Of a DNA stretch of 64,000 bases, positions 2,179 to 42,593 are shown piece by piece. Every line of letters begins with the position of its first letter. Position 1 is the first letter of the stretch. Source of the DNA: Deltaproteobacteria bacterium (GTDB lineage Bacteria > Myxococcota_A > Polyangia > Fen-1088); the NCBI GenBank assembly GCA_033763315.1, contig JANRKS010000009.1, positions 32,001-96,000 of the forward strand, given 5' to 3'. Both the position numbers and the translations under genes were made by a program. Below the pieces are notes generated by a model. The model did no database searches. It was not told the DNA's origin and saw only the letters and a program-made list of their open reading frames with translations.

Positions 2179-5100
2179 TCAGAACTCACCTCGTGTCACT
2201 TGGACGTCTCGTGGAGCGTTTGATCCAGTTTGAACGCGCACGTTAATGGTGGTTCCGGGCTCACCTGACAGCAAGGTGCCAATGGCCCTACCGCCAAGGT
2301 CTTCAACGGGACGCCCATCAATGGCAAGGATCCGGTCGCGTCTGAGAATGCCAGACTTAGATGCAGGGCTGTTTTCGTAAATGCCAGTGACCACGGCGTG
2401 CCCACCCTCGTGAGCGACACGAAGACCGGTTTCAGCCATCGCGCCACCGTTGTCGTCTTTGCTCTTTTGGGCAGGAAACAGTTTTACGTTCCCAACGTCA
2501 ATTTGATCCCCGCTTTGTGGGAGCCAAAGCTCTCGCGAATCCCCGATGTGATGCCTGCTGAGAGGTTCGATAAGTAGCAAGCAAGTTGTCCCAGGCATGC
2601 CAGTAGCGATTGTAAATTTGCCGTCTTGGTCTGTACTCACGGGTTTCGGCGGACGCAAAGCTGCGGCCATGAAATCGGTCGCGTCGATTATGGTTGCTGG
2701 AACCCCAGCTCCGTCGACAGCCGACACCACACGCCCCGTGATCTTCTGTGGTTCTCGCAAATGGATCTCGACGTTGCCTTTCGTCTGATTGGCTTTCACT
2801 TCTATGCCGATGGCTGTGCCGCGGGTCTCGTCAGGCGCAATGGCCAACAAATTAAAGGTTCCTTCCTCAATGCCCGCCATGGCGAAGTGGCCTTGCCGGT
2901 CCGTCACAAGTTGGGAAGCCGTTGGGGTACCTTTGATGGGCGCTGCAAACCCGTGCCGATCGTAAGAGCGCACCGGGCTTGCGAGGATCAAATACTGTTT
3001 CACGGGCAAGCCTTTGGCGGAAACCACTCGTCCCGAAATGCCGCCGCTAGCCTTGAAACGAAGAACGTTGCCTTCGGTACCCGAAGCCACGCCCAGCTTC
3101 TGCACATCGGGGTGATCGGGGTGGCGGCCACATAGAGCGAAATTCCCTGTTGGAAGTTTGTCCACCGTGAAGCGGCCCTCAGTGTCGGTGAGATGCTTGC
3201 CGGCGAAAGCACCGTCACAACTGCCCCAGCCGCCTCGACTCTCTTGTTCATCGATTACGCCGATCTGTGCAGCCGCGACAGGCCGACCACTTACGTCTTG
3301 GGCCACACCTGAGATGGATTTGTTTTGGCGAGTCACGGTCAACGAAAGCTCGGATGGAACCACGCCATCGCCCAGAGTGATCTCCTTGAAACTGCGTGGG
3401 TCGGCCTTGCGAAGCATGAATCCCGAATCGGCCGCTCGAGCATTCACGCTGTAGCGGCCAGCCGAGAGGTTAGGTATCTCAAAACGTCCATTGGCCGACG
3501 TGATCGCGCTCGCCGGCATAAAGCCATCGTCTTTACGCACCTCCACAATGGCTTGCGCGGCTGGCGATTCATCATCCCAACGAACCATGCCCTTCAGGGT
3601 CGCTGCCCCACCAAGGCGCAACTTGACCTCGGTGATCTTGTTGGCACTCAGGACCACGCGGGTCGACGCGCTCGCTCGGCAGGGTTCACCAACTGACAGT
3701 GTCCATCCACATTCCGACGCAACTGAGCAACCGGCGGGACCAGCATTTAGTTTGTGAAAATCGATCACACCATTCCGGTCGGAAGGTGAGTCCCCCTCGC
3801 GGCCGATCATGTATGCACCTATCGAGATAATGAGTGTGCCTTGAGCCCCTTGGACGGGTCTGTCATTTGTATCTGTGACGAGAACGCGCAGGAGTGCTTC
3901 GTTTTGCAGTTGAAGGTCCACTGCGGTGAGTGGTTTATCTATAAGGCTGAGGCTCATGCTTGCAGCTGCAAAGCCATCCAACGTGGCGTTTAGATTCGGC
4001 TGCCCCGGCGATACGCCATCGAGTCTATATCGACCATCCTTGTCGGTGAAGGTCGTAAGTTCATTGGTGCCGGTGATAACCGGAGCAGGGCCGATAGCAA
4101 CCGTAGCTCCCGCCAATGCCCCCCCCTTTGTGTCGGTGATTCTTCCTGCCACCGAGAGCCCTGGACTCATTTCAACGACAACGTCGGCAACGTCACCGAG
4201 TGCCAGCCTTACAGGGAGCGGGGTCCTCCCCACAAGTGATGCGGATTTTGCATCAAGTTGATACTTACCCGGATCGAGGCCGTCCGTTGAAAAGCGGCCC
4301 CTGGCATCCGTGATAACAGCGTTCGATGGCAAACCCAACCCAAACGAATAGAGTGGAGACACAACGACCTGAGCAGCCACCACCGGCGTGCCAGACCCGG
4401 CTTCAATCACCTTGCCGCTGATTCGAGCCGCTGGATTCAAACGGAATATGCGGTGGGTGTCATCGACAAGCGTCAGCCACTCTCGTGAGGTCGCATATCC
4501 ATTGGCGCCTATCTGAAGTTCAGCTGATCCGCGCGATAACCACAACTCGAAATGGCCCGCCGAATCTGCTTGTGTTTCTGCTGTGGCAAACGTGTTCTCG
4601 GCATCTGCACGACTGGCATTCTCCAAGGGTAGAAAGATGCTAGCTGTTGCGGAAGGAATGGCGCCACCTCCAGTGTCCACCACGTTTCCTGAGAGAGTGA
4701 CACCGCCGGCCAATAGTTCGACGACAACGTCTTTAAGGTCCTGAGCAGGATCAAGACTGATGGGAACGCCCTTGGTTTGGTATCCCTTTGCGCTTGCCGC
4801 CATGGCCAACAGCCCTGGACGAACCTTTTCCAGCCGGAAACGACCTTGCGCGTCCGTGAGCTTGGAAACAGAGAACGTTCCTGAAGAAGGGGTAAGAGAC
4901 CTCTTGAGCATCCCTTGCAGCCGCGATGTTACTGTCACCCACGCACCTGCGATGGGCATTCCCTTGGTGTCTGTGACCTTGCCTTCCACCGAGCCATGTT
5001 CGGCGCTTGACGGAAACATGAAAGCGGGGCGAAGCGAAGGACCGTCGTGGTCGTCAGATGCCGCTACTGGAGGTTGCGGATCAGGTTGAGGACCGCGCGT

Positions 5101-31785: not shown

Positions 31786-32108
31786 GCCGCGGCGACATCG
31801 TGACCGTGGCGCTTCAGGGCACCCACGGTAAACCGAGGCCTGCGGTTATTGTTCAACGCACCGACACGCTCGCCCACACGATGATTGTCATTTGCCCGAT
31901 TACAAGTGAGCTTCGTAAGACCACGCCACTGGTTCGCGTAACTCTAGATCCTTCGCCAAGCAATGGGCTACGGACCGTGTCTCAAGTCATGATCGACCGC
32001 GTGGTCAGCGCTCCCAGCGACAAACTCGGCCCGCGCATTGGCCAGCTAAGCGACGACGTAATGACAGAAGTCAGCCGGCGGTTGGCCTTTTGGCTGGGCT
32101 TTTCATGA
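31773..32108 (+). CDS. mazF: PemK/MazF family endoribonuclease toxin
   Basis: RGDIVTV..G.HGKPRPAVIVQ...CPITS...NGL...SQVMID...IGQL. Confidence 0.9.
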   Translation: MEGLSRGDIVTVALQGTHGKPRPAVIVQRTDTLAHTMIVICPITSELRKTTPLVRVTLDPSPSNGLRTVSQVMIDRVVSAPSDKLGPRIGQLSDDVMTEVSRRLAFWLGFS

Positions 32109-35860: not shown

Positions 35861-36697
35861 TCAGTGAGTCCCGTCGATGCTGTATTGTCTGAATTTCTCG
35901 TTGGGGGTCAAGTAGTCTATAGCGCTGTGGGGTCGGTTCTCGTTGTAGTCCTTTCTGTACATCTCAATGATCACCGCAGCTTCGCGGCGATTGTGAAAGA
36001 CTTCCTGATTCAAACATTCTTCTCGAAGGCGGCCATTGAAGCTTTCGATGAAGCCATTCTGCCAAGGCTTCCCAGGCTGGATGTATGCAGTTTGAACGCC
36101 TGTGGCCGCTAACCACGCTTTGACTGCTTTGGCGATGAACTCTGGGCCGTTGTCGCTGCGGATGAACCGCGGTACTCCTCGTTCTGCGAAGAGCCTCGCC
36201 AAAACCGCAATGACATTCGAGGACTTCAAGGAGCCGCGGACCTCTGCAGCCAAACTTTGACGTGTGCACTCATCAGATATGGTGAGGCACTTGATCTTCT
36301 GCCCATTCATGCAGTTGTCGTGGACAAAATCGTAAGCCCATACATCGTTGGGCCTGGACGCAACGAGCTGTCGTGGGTCCTTCTTCGTCCCGCGCCGTTT
36401 CCTTCGTCTTCTCGGAACTTGCAGGCCCGCTTTTCGCCATAGTCGGTGAACTCGGTGCACGCCGAGAGTGAAGCCACCCCGACGCAGGTAATGCCGGGCC
36501 ATGCGGTACCCAAGCCGCGGATGCTTGTACGAGAAGTCGCGTAGACGCTTCAAGGGCTCTTCGTCGCGCCTGTCCATCTTGCTCTCGTAGCCAAGCCATG
36601 ATCGAGAAACGCCAACTAGCGCGCAAGCCCTTCGGCAAGAAAGGCCGCCGCTGCGCAGAAACCAAACCTGCGCGCGGCGGACTTGCGCGCTTACCAT
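35861..36697 (-). CDS. IS3-family transposase OrfB (rve DDE)
   Basis: [43 protein letters not shown]. Confidence 0.95.
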
Positions 36698-36960
36698 TTT
36701 TTTCGGTTCAGCTCCTGAAGAAGATCGTTTTCAAGCACCTTCTCGGCCAACATCTTCTTCAGCCTGGCGTTCTCACCCTCAAGGTGCCGCAGACGTTTGG
36801 CATCAGGCACATCCATGCCGCCAAACTTTGCCTTCCAGCGGTAGAACGTCTGCTCGCTGATGCCGTGCTTCTTGCAGATGTCTTTCTGCGGGGCTTTACC
36901 GAGTTCGGCCTCACGCAGGATCCGAACAATTTGCTCCTCTTTGAAGACTTTCCGTTTCAT
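36691..36960 (-). CDS. IS3-family transposase OrfA (HTH)
   Basis: [12 protein letters not shown]...[22 protein letters not shown]...[10 protein letters not shown]. Confidence 0.95.
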
Positions 36961-37028: not shown

Positions 37029-37310
37029 CCGGTGACATGCCTGGTTTCTTCGGGCCAGCAGTTACTAGACAGCGCCTTGGTCGGGGCGGCCATCCACTTC
37101 CAGCGTCCTCTCGATGAGTGCGGCGGAGGCCGCAAGATGCTCGATGCGAATTTCTCGCAGAAGCGCGCACTGCTCGGCCGTGAGCTTGCGCCACCGTCCT
37201 CGCTCGCCACGCGACTTGGGCCGAAGCGCTTGCACGCCGCCCCCTTTAGGCGCATAGAGCCAGCGTTCAAGCGTCGACACTGAATACTCCGATCGAATGC
37301 CACCGATCGA
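37029..37310 (-). pseudogene. N-terminal remnant of a DDE transposase (ExeA-associated transposon type)
   Basis: YSVSTLERWLY..K.GG..AL.PK.R.ERGR.RKL...ALLREIR.EH..AS..LI.RTL; stop codons; truncated at the IS3 end. Confidence 0.6.
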
Positions 37311-37855
37311 GTTGGTCTCAGTTTTGGTGAGCGACGATCGCCCCGGCGTTGTCAGGGCGGCTCTCCGCCTCCTCCTCATCCCAGGATTCGGGCTACCCTC
37401 AGCTTCTATCGACCCGCTGCGACGGGCCTATGGCCGTGTCCTTTCATCACGGCACGGTTCAAAGCGCCTCGTGGCGCACGATGTCCCAGGACCAAACTTG
37501 CCCAGGCCCAGTCGCCAGTAGCTCTGGCTTGGAAAACACGGTTAAACGGCGCTGTCGCCGACGCTCACAAACCTCGTGATTCGCCGCCAAGATTCGATAC
37601 ATCGTGCACAACGAACACAAATACTTGCCTTCGTCGAGCAGCCGCGCAAACACCTCCGTCGGCGCCAGCGCTTGTTTAGGCCGCCTTTTTCTTGATGGCG
37701 GTCGCGCGGCACTGTCGCGATGGCGATAGAACGTGGCGCGCCAGGCCAATGGCTGCGTATGCGCCAACGATTGTCAACGCGGGTCCATGCTCCTTGAAGA
37801 CCGCAATCATGGCTTGTCGCTCCCCAGCGGTCGTCCCAAGAGAGCCGCGACTTTC

Positions 37856-39232
37856 CTAAGAAACTTCCCCCTCCGAGCTTGGAACCAGTTGGAAGCCCAG
37901 ACTACCTGCGCGCCTGCGAAGATTGTCGAGGGTCCGTTGGCGAAATCTTTCTTCGTGGTAGTCGGCACCCGGATCGACGTGGGCCGCCCCATGCTTAAGC
38001 GTGTTGTAGAAGAGCACGGCAATCTTGCGGGCCGTCGCAGTGACTGCTTTCGACTTTCCGACGCGGGCTGCAAGCCTACGGAAAAAGGCGCCCAGCGCTG
38101 TTTGCGTTTTGCCCACTGAAAGCGCGCACATCCGAAGTAGCACGCCGGCGCGGTTCGAGGAGCGTCGGGTCCGCGAACTGAGCACCTTACCGCCGGATAT
38201 CTCGCTGCCCGGGGCGAGAGTGAGCCACGACGTGAAGGGCTTGGCCGTAGGCCAGCGGGTCATATCGGTGCCGGTGCCGCACTCCCCGACGAGGCGCAGT
38301 GCTGAATACGGTCCAAGTCCATGAATTTGAGTAAGATCGACACCTCCTTTGAGGGTGTAGACTGCGGACCGCACGTCAAAATCAGGCTCGTTTCTACCTG
38401 GAGACTTCCTCCGAGGCTGGGGCATAACTTCCTTAGGCAGTGCACTCCGTTCATTCAAAGCAGCCAGGCAGCATTCGACCTCGACGTCACAGTCGCGCAT
38501 CCTCGCCTGATAGAAGTCGTAAAATTCGACAGCCTGACGAAGCTCAAACATATGCTCGGGACGGAAGTTGCCGGTGAGCGCTTCGCTGATTGTCTGCACG
38601 GATGCCTTGCAGCGCGGGTCACGGAACTGTGCCAAGGTCGCAGGCTGTCTTTCTCCATCGATGATCGCGCGAATGAGCTTCATTCCCGTTACGCCCGTTA
38701 CGTCGCTCACGACGTGGTAGAGTTGAAGATTTATCTGCATGAGTGCTTTCTGGATGTGCTGGACATGCGAGGCCGCGTACTCCACTAGGCCATCGCGAGT
38801 ACGCAGGTATGCCCTCAACGCAGTGATCTTCTCGTGTGGGCGGAAACTCCCCCGAACCAACCCGTACGCATGCAGCTGCTGGATTCACTGGGCGTCGTTC
38901 ACGTCAGTCTTCCGCCCAGGAACATTTTTGGCATCGCGTGCATTGACCAGCACTACCTCGAACCCCCGAGCTTCTAGGATCTCGTAGATGGCAACCTAGT
39001 AGATGCTTGTCGACTCGATCGCGATGGTCGTGATGCCGAGGTCCTTGAGCCAGTCGCCTAGGCGATAAAGATCTCCTGTAAAGCTTCGGAATGTGCGAAC
39101 CGGCTGCTGATCTGCATCCCGCGGCACGGCCACCACGTGGAAAGTTGCCCCGATGTCGATTCCAGCGGCATGCCTATGGACAATCGGCAGCCCAGCTTCG
39201 TCCCCTCTTTTCGTCTTACCCTTCGTCGCCAT
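37856..39232 (-). pseudogene. IS110 DEDD recombinase pseudogene
   Basis: AAGIDIG, ESTSIY*, PGRKTDVNDAQ*, SWLTLAPG..ISGGK, AVTATARK. Two in-frame stops at conserved Trp positions; GGAGG SD. Confidence 0.9.
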
Positions 39233-39239
39233 GATTCCC

Positions 39240-39440
39240 TCCTGTTTAGATGAGGAGATGGAAAGCGAGGCTGCGCATTGAATCACTTTCCTAAACGGGA
39301 TCGCCCCGGAGCGTCACCACTTCCAAGCACGCAGCAGCCTCGGGACCATGTTTTTTTCGGGATCGTTGTCGTCACCAAAAAGTGTGCGGCCGCTCGTTCC
39401 AACTCAGGTCAATCGTACACGAGTTTCTCGAACCACAGGC
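39240..39440 (-). ncRNA. Candidate IS110 bridge RNA in the left-end non-coding region
   Basis: Two copies of TGGTGA-CG..CG-ATCCCG (39358-39377 and 39296-39319). They are flanked by CACTTTT and A7 (resembling the target) and by TTTAGGA (matching the element's right end). Boundaries approximate. Confidence 0.55.
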
Positions 39441-39871
39441 AGGAGCGCCGCTCCTTTTGTAGCGCAACCAGCGCCTCGGCATGCTCGGCGCGCGCAGTGG
39501 CTTTATGGAGCTGCTTCTCCAGCTCAGCGATCTTGCGGTTGCGTTCATCAACGACCTTGGCTTTGCGGCCCCTCTTCTTAGGGGCCAGCAGCTCGCCACG
39601 CTCCCGGGCTCGGCGCCAATCGACCAGCTGCGAGGAGAAAAGTCCCTCGCGCCGCAACTGCGCCCCAATCTCGCCAGACGCCTTACAGGCGTCGGCTTGC
39701 CGCACTATCTCAAGCTTGTATTGCGCCGTAAATCGGCGCCGTTTTACTTTGGCCGACACCTGCACATCGCGCAGCTTTTCGGTCCCATTGAGAACATTTT
39801 CCATGAGTCATCCAATCACCGCCCTGGTGTCTAAATTCCCGGTCAGTGCCTGTCTCATCCAACCTGGCACA

Positions 39872-40212
39872 GAGGTCCATCGGCATGCGCACATTGCCGA
39901 CCACCGCTGGCGAAGATCTGCTTGCATTAGTTATGAGGCGTTACGAGCGTGCCAGCACCCTATTTACTCGAATCGTCCCGTTGAAGATTTGGGGCCGTCT
40001 GCTTGGCGACACCGCCGCGGTGGCCGCGATGCTTGACCGACTTCTGCACCATGGCCACGTCCTAAAGTGTGGTCTCAGAAGCTGGCGAACAAAACACCAC
40101 ACAAATTTGCAGCCGGAGCCTGTCTCCGCTTGCATGACGATGTCCCGGCCACTTTTCCTTTGGCCGGTTTTGAAGTGAGCATCTTTGGCCGGTTTTGAGG
40201 TGATCATCGAGG
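39872..40212 (+). mobile_element. istB: IS21-family remnant: istB 3' end plus right terminal repeats
   Basis: EDLLALVMRRYERAST...WGRLLGDTAAVAAMLDRLLHHGHVLKCG.RSWR; tandem tttggccggttttga(a/g)gtga(g/t)catc at 40159-40208 followed by GAGG. Confidence 0.8.
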
Positions 40213-40250: not shown

Positions 40251-42593
40251 ATGAATACTAAGGTTCGCGCCGCGGCGGCCACAATACTCCTATTGCTCGG
40301 CCTGGTTTACTTTGCAGTCATCTTGAATCATCTGTATTCCGTCACGCGCTGGCTCGCGTGGCGCTATTTGATTCAGTGGTCGCTCGCCTCTTTTTGGACA
40401 TTCGGCTGCCTCTCCTTGGGACACTACTTGGTTCGCCACGTCCTTAAGCAGAAGTTCCCGGCGCGCGAACACGTTCTCTTGAGCTTGGCCACGGGTGTCC
40501 TCGCCTTTGGTTTGGTCCTGTTTAGCTGTGGTTTGTTGGGCGGTCTCAACGGCGTGTTCTTCCTCCTTTGCCCCTTCCTGCTGAGCTTGACATTCGGTCC
40601 GAGCTTCCTCGTGTACGCCAAGCGTCGCTGCATTCGTCTTGTACATTTGACCGCCGCCAATGGAAGAGCTGCGCTTTGGGGTGCAACAGCTCGCGTGTTC
40701 GGCTTGGCCGGCATCGCAATCATCGTTTTGCAGATTATGACGCCGCAGAACGTGGCCTTCGACGCTCACTGGTATCACGCGGCGATTGCAGAGTCTTACG
40801 CGGTGACAGGGCACATAAGACGTTTCAATGAGGGGTGGTTTCTCGGAACCTTGCCGCAACTTGCGACGTGGATCTACACCTGGGCTTTTCTCTGCCCCCG
40901 CGCTTCGTTGGCTTTTCGGATCGAGCTGGCCGCCCATCTCGAGCTTGTCTTGTTTCTGTTTACCTTGGCGGGTGTTGAGCCAACCGTTCGCTGGTTGCTT
41001 AAGGGAGAGGGCGCACGTGCGGCCTGGGTATCCGTCTTCTTGTTCCCGGGAATTTTCGTCTACGACTCAAACCTCAACCTATCGGCTGATCACATTCTCG
41101 GCTTCTGGACGTTGCCCGCCCTGTTGGTGGCACGACGCCTATTTCCGGTCGGCTCCGAGCAAATGGTTGGCATTCGTCGCTGCGTGCTTCTGGGTATCAT
41201 TTTGTCAGGTGCACTCCTCACCAAGTATCAGGTGCTTTATCTGGTGGTGGCTCTGACGTTCCTATTGTTTATGTCAACGTTTGATGACCTGTGGACTTCG
41301 CCGCGCGTTGCGAGGCCACGAATTGTCCTCTTGGCGTTTGCTCGGTTGTCGGTTGCGGGCGTTACCGTCGGCGTGTTGACGAGCCCGCACTGGCTAAAGA
41401 ACCTGATTTGGCATGGAAATCCCTTCTATCCATTCGCGCACAAGCTGTTCGGGGGCTTCCCCTGGACGGCTGGTACAGAGTTTCGCCTTCTGGATGCTGG
41501 CTGGACGCCCGAGGGCCCCCTTTGGGGGCGGTTAAAAGAGACGTTGGTCGCGTTGGCGTCTTTCTCTTTTAAGCCTCACGACTGGCCTGACTTTCACCGT
41601 GACCTTCCGATTTTCGGGTCCGTCTTTACCCTGATCATGATCCCTTGCTTGATCATTAAGCCACAGCGACGCCTATTTTCGCTGGCTTTGTCGACCCTTG
41701 TCGCGATTGGGACTTGGTATTGGACCTACCACCAGGATCGATACCTGCAATCGCTGTTGCCATGGATCGCCACTTTCACTGCAGCCGCTTTGGTCACCTT
41801 GTGGCGAACACAATCGCTGGCGATTCGCCTCGCACTGGTGAGCCTAATCGGCATCCAGCTAATTTGGGGATTCGAGCTTCCGGCTTTGCCAACCCACGCC
41901 ATGGCAGGCCGGTCGCCCATCATGTCAACGCTCGACCGGTTGTCTTCCGGTTACCGGGGCGACTGGGCCAATCGTGACGACCCTGCGACGAGTTTACCTC
42001 GCGTCGCGGCTCGGCTGCCAGAACGTGCCGTTGCCTTGCTGCATGAAGAGCACCTTCGATTGGGGCTTGGACACTGGATCGTGTCCGACAGCTTTGGTCG
42101 CCAAGGGGCCATTCGGTACCGCAACTGGGACACACGGAGGAGGGTCTACGACCGGCTAGCAGCACTCGGCGTCACACATATAATCCTGCGCGCAGAACCC
42201 ACCGGCGACTTTTCGTTGGCCGACAACATCGTGCTCTTTGACTTTCTGAAGGCGTTGCCTCTTGCGGCAGAGGTTGAGGGATACCGGATCTTTGAAATGA
42301 GGGACAGCCCAAGGTTGCAACCGACCGCCTACGCGGGGGCCCTGGTCGTCAAGTGCAACGGCGAGTTACGCACCGTCAGAACCGTCAAGTCTTTCGATAC
42401 GCTCGGCGGGTTTGCGAGCGATGATTGTGCCCCAGACCTTGGGCGTCTGGAATCAGCCTCTGCGCATGTTCGGTTTGTCATCGCGCCGCAAAAATTGAAT
42501 GCCCTAGGCGGTCGGCTGGGACCTAAATGGCAACAACTATTTTCGCACTCCGATGTCCTGGTATTTGCACGGGTGGCTGATAATGAATCCTAG
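40251..42593 (+). CDS. Polytopic membrane protein, GT-C-like glycosyltransferase
   Basis: Many TM segments; FDAHWYH loop; LLTKYQ; HGNPFYP; QDRYL; soluble C-terminal domain. Confidence 0.7.
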   Translation: MNTKVRAAAATILLLLGLVYFAVILNHLYSVTRWLAWRYLIQWSLASFWTFGCLSLGHYLVRHVLKQKFPAREHVLLSLATGVLAFGLVLFSCGLLGGLNGVFFLLCPFLLSLTFGPSFLVYAKRRCIRLVHLTAANGRAALWGATARVFGLAGIAIIVLQIMTPQNVAFDAHWYHAAIAESYAVTGHIRRFNEGWFLGTLPQLATWIYTWAFLCPRASLAFRIELAAHLELVLFLFTLAGVEPTVRWLLKGEGARAAWVSVFLFPGIFVYDSNLNLSADHILGFWTLPALLVARRLFPVGSEQMVGIRRCVLLGIILSGALLTKYQVLYLVVALTFLLFMSTFDDLWTSPRVARPRIVLLAFARLSVAGVTVGVLTSPHWLKNLIWHGNPFYPFAHKLFGGFPWTAGTEFRLLDAGWTPEGPLWGRLKETLVALASFSFKPHDWPDFHRDLPIFGSVFTLIMIPCLIIKPQRRLFSLALSTLVAIGTWYWTYHQDRYLQSLLPWIATFTAAALVTLWRTQSLAIRLALVSLIGIQLIWGFELPALPTHAMAGRSPIMSTLDRLSSGYRGDWANRDDPATSLPRVAARLPERAVALLHEEHLRLGLGHWIVSDSFGRQGAIRYRNWDTRRRVYDRLAALGVTHIILRAEPTGDFSLADNIVLFDFLKALPLAAEVEGYRIFEMRDSPRLQPTAYAGALVVKCNGELRTVRTVKSFDTLGGFASDDCAPDLGRLESASAHVRFVIAPQKLNALGGRLGPKWQQLFSHSDVLVFARVADNES

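Follow-up and report, generated by a model that had tools for sequence, protein, structure and literature searches.

The 64,000-nucleotide stretch of DNA analysed here (the window; positions 32,001–96,000 of contig JANRKS010000009.1, assembly GCA_033763315.1) comes from a Deltaproteobacteria bacterium and carries, on its reverse strand, an insertion sequence (IS) of the IS110 family lodged in the orfA gene of an IS3-family element. It is very probably a dead copy of an RNA-guided IS110-family element from a widespread clade whose target is the A-run that serves programmed −1 frameshifting where orfA and orfB of IS3 elements overlap. The nested elements are laid out as follows, in positions of the window.

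37853–39453 (−): IS110-family element as it stands, from its junctions; the right-hand copy of the AA core (37854–37853) is counted in
37856–39232 (−): DEDD recombinase pseudogene of 458 codons plus stop, from domain matches and in-frame stops
39454–39804 (−): host IS3-family orfA (HTH_Tnp_1, 1.3e-6), cut after ...ALVALQK
37459–37852 (−): remainder of the host IS3, namely the orfA tail KVAALLGRPLGSDKP with its stop and a frameshifted, truncated orfB start

The recombinase matches DEDD_Tnp_IS110 (PF01548; 5.7e-19, residues 23–167) and Transposase_20 (PF02371; 8e-9, residues 300–376), and the columns invariant across six aligned sequences include its residues D26, E73, D110, D113 and S335, which are presumably catalytic. 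Its gene is interrupted by an in-frame TAG at codon 79 (38998–38996) and an in-frame TGA at codon 116 (38887–38885), both at tryptophan columns that are conserved in five of five aligned homologs. The non-coding left end extends for 221 nt before the ATG (39453–39233), the long upstream end being an IS110 trait, and the downstream end is very short, with the recombinase stop codon followed by a G and then by the AA core. The element is a member of the IS110 family that is neither intact nor potentially active, given its two stops, its apparently truncated left terminus and its presence as a single copy.

The left junction reads CTACAAAAG/GAGCGGCG (CTACAAAAG/GAGCGG in the detailed reading) and the right junction CTTAGG/AAAGTCGCG. 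The original prediction had placed an IS110 element within the A-rich end of orfA; the element does split the host orfA, with ends that differ by 1–2 nt from those first given. The uninterrupted state is seen in an IS3 paralog (73% identical) on another contig of the same genome, which reads CTAC-A8-GTGGCAGCT, encoding LQKKVAALLG, at the matching place; CAAAAAAAAGTNGC occurs only once in the genome, in this paralog. There the −1 frame opens six codons before A8 and continues open into orfB, which by eye appears to encode a DDE-type transposase. On this basis the A-run is read as the slip site expected of an IS3 element, at which frameshifting would take place. Searching the complete 7.6-Mb assembly at both DNA and protein level gave no second copy of the IS110 element and no related recombinase, so that its target rules cannot be learned from its own genome.

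Structure of the non-coding left end

Two copies of a repeated unit had been predicted in the upstream non-coding end of about 220 nt, and both are found there, at 39377–39358 and 39319–39296. The unit pattern TGGTGACG-N(2-12)-CGATCCCG, searched as TGGTGACGN{2,12}CGATCCCG, occurs twice in the 64 kb of the window and in none of 100 shuffles. The segments flanking the units are present as described: CACACTTTT (39386–39378) and A7 (39357–39351) on either side of unit 1, and TTTAGGAA (39295–39288) following unit 2.

For a consensus fold, 45 distinct left ends were aligned, folded with RNAalifold and refined by hand, and the pairs were then counted. The fold comprises five helices with 93.3% of the cells paired, compared with 38–51% when the partners are slid by 1–3 columns. 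Compensatory changes on both sides are present in 21 of the 33 pairs, and none of 500 shuffles reaches any of the five fold measures. The plan is that of an outer stem plus two internal loops of the same build, each running from the outer stem through a 9-nt 5' strand, UGG(U/A)G..hairpin..CCCG and a 9–10-nt 3' strand back to the outer stem, in agreement with the two internal loops that had been foreseen. Mapped onto this consensus by hand, the window sequence forms five of the six outer-stem pairs and all of the loop-closing pairs. The resulting features of the left end, listed in the 5' to 3' order of the RNA, are given below.

39259–39401 (−): structured core of the bridge-RNA-like non-coding RNA, from RNAalifold and pair counts; outer stem formed by 39401–39396 with 39264–39259
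39378–39386 (−): 5' side of loop 1, candidate right-target guide CACACUUUU, corresponding to the segment flanking unit 1 and complementary to the top strand (A)AAAGTGTG
39358–39377 (−): unit 1, UGGUGACGACAACGAUCCCG, inner stem-hairpin of the candidate target-binding loop
39349–39357 (−): 3' side of loop 1, candidate left-target guide AAAAAAACA, identical to the top-strand A-run plus core
39296–39319 (−): unit 2, UGGUGACGCUCCGGGGCGAUCCCG, inner stem-hairpin of the candidate donor-binding loop (helix 5, 97.5% of cells paired)
39285–39295 (−): 3' side of loop 2, candidate left-donor guide UUUAGGAAAGU, identical to the right end TTAGG plus core AA and continuing into the flank AGT

A pairing between the U-run and the A-run, suggested by the single-sequence fold of the window, was dropped in favour of the consensus fold.

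Guide segments and insertion sites

A one-genome-per-species scan gave 192 confirmed relatives, of which the best 80 were kept; 77 of these are homologous loci with 54–73% amino-acid identity to the window protein. Their hosts include Myxococcota, Acidobacteriota, Planctomycetota, Chloroflexota, cyanobacteria, Actinomycetota and Alpha-, Beta- and Gammaproteobacteria. A left end could be assigned in 71 of the 80 loci examined. In six multi-copy families no assumption is needed to place the left boundary, as flanks like GAGCGAGATATCTTAAAAAA, GAACGTGACATTCTAAAAAA and GAGCGCGATTTATTAAAAAA (..ERDILKK) adjoin a left end that starts with C. The right ends are near-constant (GGAGTTTCTTAGG-AA), and the right end GGAGTTTCTTAGGAA is followed by codons of the IS3 OrfA tail, the right flanks reading either AGCGGCGGCCTTCTTCGC.. 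(KAAAFFAKE) or AGT.GC..CTG.TGGG (KVAxLLG, the window type).

The original prediction held that this lineage targets A-rich slippery sites of IS3 elements, and the relatives bear this out. Among the distinct left flanks of loci with an assigned left end, 41 of 57 end in A6 or A7 (27 and 14, respectively), and 32 of 50 distinct left-flank open reading frames (ORFs) of at least 25 residues match HTH_Tnp_1, that is IS3 OrfA, at E ≤ 0.01 (30 of them above the Pfam cut-off). E. coli holds a relative that is 95% identical to a copy on an Enterobacter plasmid, with some match in 546 of 5426 complete genomes and a near-full match in 74; in one of these genomes, it is flanked by a partial 'transposase' on one side and a partial 'IS3 family transposase' on the other, at ATATTAAAAAA/../GGCTACCGCGCTCTTGATG (left flank GAAATATTAAAAAA in the detailed reading).

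The left guide follows its own flank closely. Its last seven bases and the following C match the upstream window of the same element with at most one mismatch in 52 of 56 distinct cases, 32 of them exactly; foreign left guides differing by at least 3 nt do so in only four of 992 cases. Decisively, the match extends to guides that are not A-rich, such as UGGCAAAC in a Vicinamibacterales genome (flank TGGCAAAC), CAGGGAAAC in L083 (flank CAGGGAAAC), CAAGAAAC (flank CAAGAAAC), AGGGAAAC (flank AGGGAAAC) and AUAUAUAAC in Mycoavidus (flank TATATAAC, which the detailed listing pairs with the guide UAUAUAAC), and ACUUCUACC is a further variant of this kind that matches its own non-A-rich flank. For the right guide, positions 6–3 were compared with the first four bases of the right flank in a set that includes one row (L019) with a misplaced right end, giving a mean of 2.51 versus 1.97 matches, and none of 10000 permutations reached the observed value. 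Guide position 4 against RT3 (n = 49) gave 22 G-C, ten A-T and five G-T combinations. The predicted covariation of the variable segments with the insertion-site flanks is thus found on both sides of loop 1: elements that keep the A-rich and CUUUU segments lie in A-rich IS3 slip sites, and changed segments go with targets that are changed to match, which runs counter to the refuting outcome that the original prediction had named.

The correspondence that had been pointed out between the segment after unit 2 and the right end of the element also holds across the relatives, with UUUAGGAA found with TTAGGAA, UUCAGGAA with CTCAGGAA, UAUAGGAA with CATAGGAA and UUCGAGAC with CTCGAGAC. In L035, the flank ends in ..TCTAC, the right end in ..CGAGAC and the guides in ..CUAC and ..AGAC, giving AC where other elements have AA; L035 represents a coordinated switch of the core and, for both loops, a natural retargeting. 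This element, on a contig labelled as a Bathyarchaeia metagenome-assembled genome (MAG), has a right end ..CTCGAGAC and is inserted in a Y2_Tnp (IS91-type) ORF. Head-to-tail arrays read TTAGG-AA-CC (GGAA/CC) in Mycoavidus and TTAGG-AAA-C (GGAAA/C) in two other genomes, and the core would therefore be AA or AAA in exact length. In 39 of 47 events the base after UUAGGAA is the same as that at the start of the flank (A-A 35, G-G 4); a 'handshake'-type reading of this base may hold, but most targets share that A.

Applied to the window, loop 1 (CACACUUUU plus AAAAAAA(C)) points to N-A7/8-GT(G) as the predicted target; this corresponds to the slip run of the KVAxLLG-type IS3 with the A8 that is intact in the paralog. 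On the right, the flank present in the window, AA-AGTCGC, agrees over the core and three further bases, the right-target guide matching the core and AGT, and loop 2 (UUUAGGAA(AGU)) matches the right end TTAGG-AA(-AGT).

Some relatives depart from the common pattern. Eleven copies of one relative, with the left guide UGGCAAAC, lie on a single contig of a Vicinamibacterales MAG (L045–L055). Seven of the ten copies compared are at TTCTGGGCAAAC (one at TTTTGGGCAAAC) and two are in an IS3 OrfA tail (..EILAK); both of the scanned ORFs of the TTCTGGGCAAAC group are DDE_Tnp_1_4 transposases, and one copy stands head-to-tail with another. A further relative (L059:831-1247) occupies GGAATATTAAAAAAC within an ORF that carries HTH_33/HTH_32 domains and reads as an IS630-like N-terminus, which would mean that the A-run motif is used in another transposase family. 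In L046, L050 and L062 the right end breaks off at ..GTTTCTTAG, beyond which the sequence is unrelated (CCCGG.. or TCCC..); these look like right-end truncations or rearrangements.

Mechanism, alternatives and the decay of the locus

Comparison of the sequences reveals the anatomy of the element, the covariation of its RNA structure, the covariation of guides with flanks and the bias in targets. In the mechanism that we propose, a bridge-type RNA would be encoded in the left end of about 220 nt, its two internal loops being built alike. Loop 1 would read the target, with its 3' side (A7) identical to the top strand left of and including the AA core and its 5' side (..ACUUU) complementary to the core and the first bases of the right flank (AGT), and loop 2 would read the element's own right end (UUAGG-AA). 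By analogy with IS621, the RNA would be made, bound by the recombinase and used to guide recombination. The active ancestor would have inserted into a C-A8-GT slip run, and decay would then have brought two Trp-to-stop changes and removed about 8 nt at the left junction.

Several observations weigh against this proposal. The window RNA folds by itself no better than its shuffles (z = −0.80, with 49 of 200 shuffles at least as stable) and, because this single-sequence fold is unremarkable, its structure emerges only through comparison with relatives. A scan of 37500–39900 gave no match to an Rfam family, the two chance-level matches to long non-coding RNAs (E values of 2.2 and 2.7) being far under the gathering scores. 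A simple promoter scan gave no site in the left ends of the window element, L060 and L086; in head-to-tail arrays it gave none in L026 and two in L068, one per strand at about 3022–3075, unplaced relative to the junction. A right-donor guide was not found, either by eye or from a mutual-information scan of every RNA column against the opening bases of the left end: the only column associations involved identical letters and had a clade-linked look, and the 5' side of loop 2 showed no consistent complementarity to the start of the left end. About half of the elements have an A opposite the first core A in the right guide (CUUAU type), so that the pairing rules differ in detail from those of IS621. 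Among the 50 left-flank ORFs, 18 are not IS3 OrfA (two DDE_Tnp_1_4, one Y2_Tnp, one HTH_33/HTH_32, one with a weak TPR_6 match only and 13 without a match). The left boundaries of single-copy elements were placed with the help of the guide, which makes the flank counts partly circular; the six multi-copy families and the left-guide window-scan test are free of this circularity. Finally, the left junction of the window element mismatches its own guide, which is explained only through an assumed deletion.

A TTGGAC..TAnnnT promoter picked out by eye in the left end was dropped, the scans having given no consistent sigma-70-type site.

The mismatch at the left junction bears on an alternative view of the window copy, in which it is complete, its left end truly starts with GGAGCGG and it was inserted into CTACAAAAGAAAGTC with a single shared G. 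Cutting out 39453..37855 fuses CAA AAG with AAA GTC and gives back exactly the length of the paralog and LQKKVAALLG, the excision that the original prediction had described. However, all 70 relatives with an assigned start begin with C, usually as C-N-N-T-C before the first hairpin, and this start is missing from the window. The distance from the start to AGAAAC is 26 nt in the window, the shortest of 71, and 30–59 nt in the 70 relatives. The left A-run of the window is only A4, against the A6 or A7 of most relatives, and mismatches its own A7 guide, a disagreement exceeding one mismatch in only four of the 56 distinct cases. A complete copy is thus unlikely, and the left terminus has probably been truncated by a deletion of about 8 nt that spans the left junction. 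Given such a deletion, the restored frame would depend on a G belonging to the first hairpin of the element, and since the terminus appears truncated, the frame-restoring 'excision', which does yield LQK-KVAALLG, is in part a coincidence of counts. The window copy is a fossil from which no activity is expected.

It is also conceivable that one ancient IS110 insertion in one IS3 was carried along as a passenger, the association reflecting common descent of the composite. Amplification of such a composite fits Caedibacter, where seven copies have IS3 flanks that are 100% identical over 165 nt, all of them occupied. In that genome, an IS110 left end follows ten of the 11 places that match the IS3 orfA tail, the lone empty place being an 85%-identical variant reading TTAAAAAAGGCAGTTGCC; the seven IS3::IS110 composites (within L089–L099) stand at different places, and either the sites are saturated or the composite was amplified as a unit. 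As a general account, passenger descent is highly improbable, as the host IS3 elements vary widely (KAAAFFAKE type, KVAxLLG type and, in E. coli, an ATALLMSDS tail) and their hosts are spread over many phyla. Moreover, the same IS110 occurs in different IS3 hosts of one genome (L026 versus L028, L060 versus L062 and L070 versus L079), copies at the same short motif lie outside any IS3 ORF (L038) and changes in the guide track changes in the target. Just as little credence is given to the idea that the units, with the A/T-rich segments beside them, serve as protein-binding sites or as a translational leader rather than as an RNA guide, with a DNA-shape preference of the recombinase accounting for insertion into A-runs: transcription of the left end is presumed, the window RNA is not unusually stable and A/T runs are low-complexity and easily matched, but compensatory changes in 21 of 33 pairs point to RNA structure, the non-A-rich variants (UGGCAAAC, CAGGGAAAC and ACUUCUACC) match their own non-A-rich flanks and foreign guides do so in just four of 992 cases.

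The host IS3 is itself decayed, with a frameshifted orfB start that ends near 37459 beside an HTH_32 fragment. This transposase-like fragment (37065–37379, −; under the Pfam cut-off), at the host orfB break, represents further mobile-element debris. The left end of the host IS3 is adjoined by the C-terminal 75 residues of an IstB_IS21 ATPase (2.6e-15; 39846–40175, +), and the IS3 therefore landed in or beside what is left of an IS21, which makes for at least three nested layers. Another IS3-family element, unrelated to the host, lies at 35861–36960 (−) and has an orfA (HTH_Tnp_1, 3.9e-20) and an orfB (rve, rve_3) with an unoccupied orfA/orfB junction. Beyond the IS21 remnant, a 780-residue ORF (40251–42593, +) without a Pfam match at E 0.01 appears by eye to encode a multi-pass membrane protein.

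Relation to known systems and significance

IS621 targets repetitive extragenic palindromic (REP) sequences and has a recombinase of about 326 residues; that of the window is longer, at 458 residues. IS110/IS1111-type elements are known to home into terminal repeats of other mobile elements, whereas the slip-site target here is coding. RNA-guided recombination by IS110 elements is itself established. The portions available of the primary literature describe left guides that equal the top strand and right guides that equal its complement, both including the core (Durrant et al., 2024; PMC11208160), an IS621 left-target guide around position 53 and right-target guide at 74–82 (Hiraizumi et al., 2024; PMC11208158) and recombinases of 315–330 residues in the IS621 branch (Siddiquee et al., 2024; PMC11187229).

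As far as these portions extend, the window clade resembles IS621 in its DEDD recombinase, whose gene is preceded by a long non-coding left end, in an RNA whose two internal loops match the target and the element ends, respectively, in left guides equal to the top strand with a complementary right guide, in a 2-nt core shared by target and donor, and in a short natural pairing of the right guide (core plus 2–3 nt). It differs in its core, which is AA here and CT in IS621, and in the order of the guides, since in each loop the guide that would pair with the top strand lies 5' and that for the bottom strand 3', the reverse of IS621 as described there. Further differences are that both loops share an inner UGG(U/A)G..CCCG stem and that the target is an IS3 slip site. 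A second parallel is offered by ISEc21 and its seekRNA, an RNA-guided IS110-family system for which the available text gives a conserved stretch inside IS3-family transposase genes as the natural target (PMC11187229), which makes it, too, an 'IS of ISs'. There, however, the IS3 site is another one, the transposase has 358 residues and belongs to another subgroup, and the bottom-strand match precedes the top-strand match, the reverse of the window clade (PMC11187229). The guide order of the window clade is that given in the same source for IS1111-type elements, yet its non-coding region lies upstream (PMC11187229).

No published description of IS110 elements in IS3 frameshift sites was found in a search that left aside figures, ISfinder and TnPedia texts and a picture-only supplement. 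In the portions available, IS3 is unmentioned by Durrant et al. (2024; PMC11208160) and by a preprint (10.64898/2026.08.14.744561), and the supplements of Siddiquee et al. (2024) name it for ISEc21 only. The mechanism is known from the bridge RNA of IS621; the IS3 slip-site target and the reversed guide order, which were not found in print, are apparently undescribed.

A broader proposal stands in our judgement at even chances: that these IS110 elements with long recombinases form a pan-bacterial clade specialised in parasitising IS3, with an AA core, a guide order inverted relative to IS621 and ISEc21 and an RNA tuned to the frameshift heptamer, and that the clade knocks out the host IS3 copy and has offshoots retargeted to other transposase genes (DDE_Tnp_1_4, Y2_Tnp and HTH_33 type). 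Every insertion splits the IS3 transposase frame; that these elements hitchhike on IS3 or disable it, as the original prediction envisaged, is speculation.

If the proposal is correct, bridge recombinases would gain an undescribed class of natural target and a new loop architecture, and ISEc21 would be joined by a second independent case of an IS110-type element living on IS3. The frameshift heptamer is hard for IS3 to change, and as a landing pad it would be harmless, present in many copies and carried along by horizontal transfer, so that an element with a guide RNA tuned to it could land safely in most, if not nearly all, bacterial genomes and in plasmids. This would suggest a natural logic of target choice, the A AAA AAG-type slip site being among the most constrained and widespread short motifs of mobile DNA. 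The many intact natural orthologs, among them those of E. coli, Caballeronia and Caedibacter, with their AA core, different loop layout and recombinases of 440–460 residues, would provide material on how bridge recombinases read their cores and order their guides. For genome annotation, IS3 'pseudogenes' that are interrupted at their frameshift site by a gene labelled 'IS110 family transposase' would represent a recurrent and explainable pattern rather than random decay.

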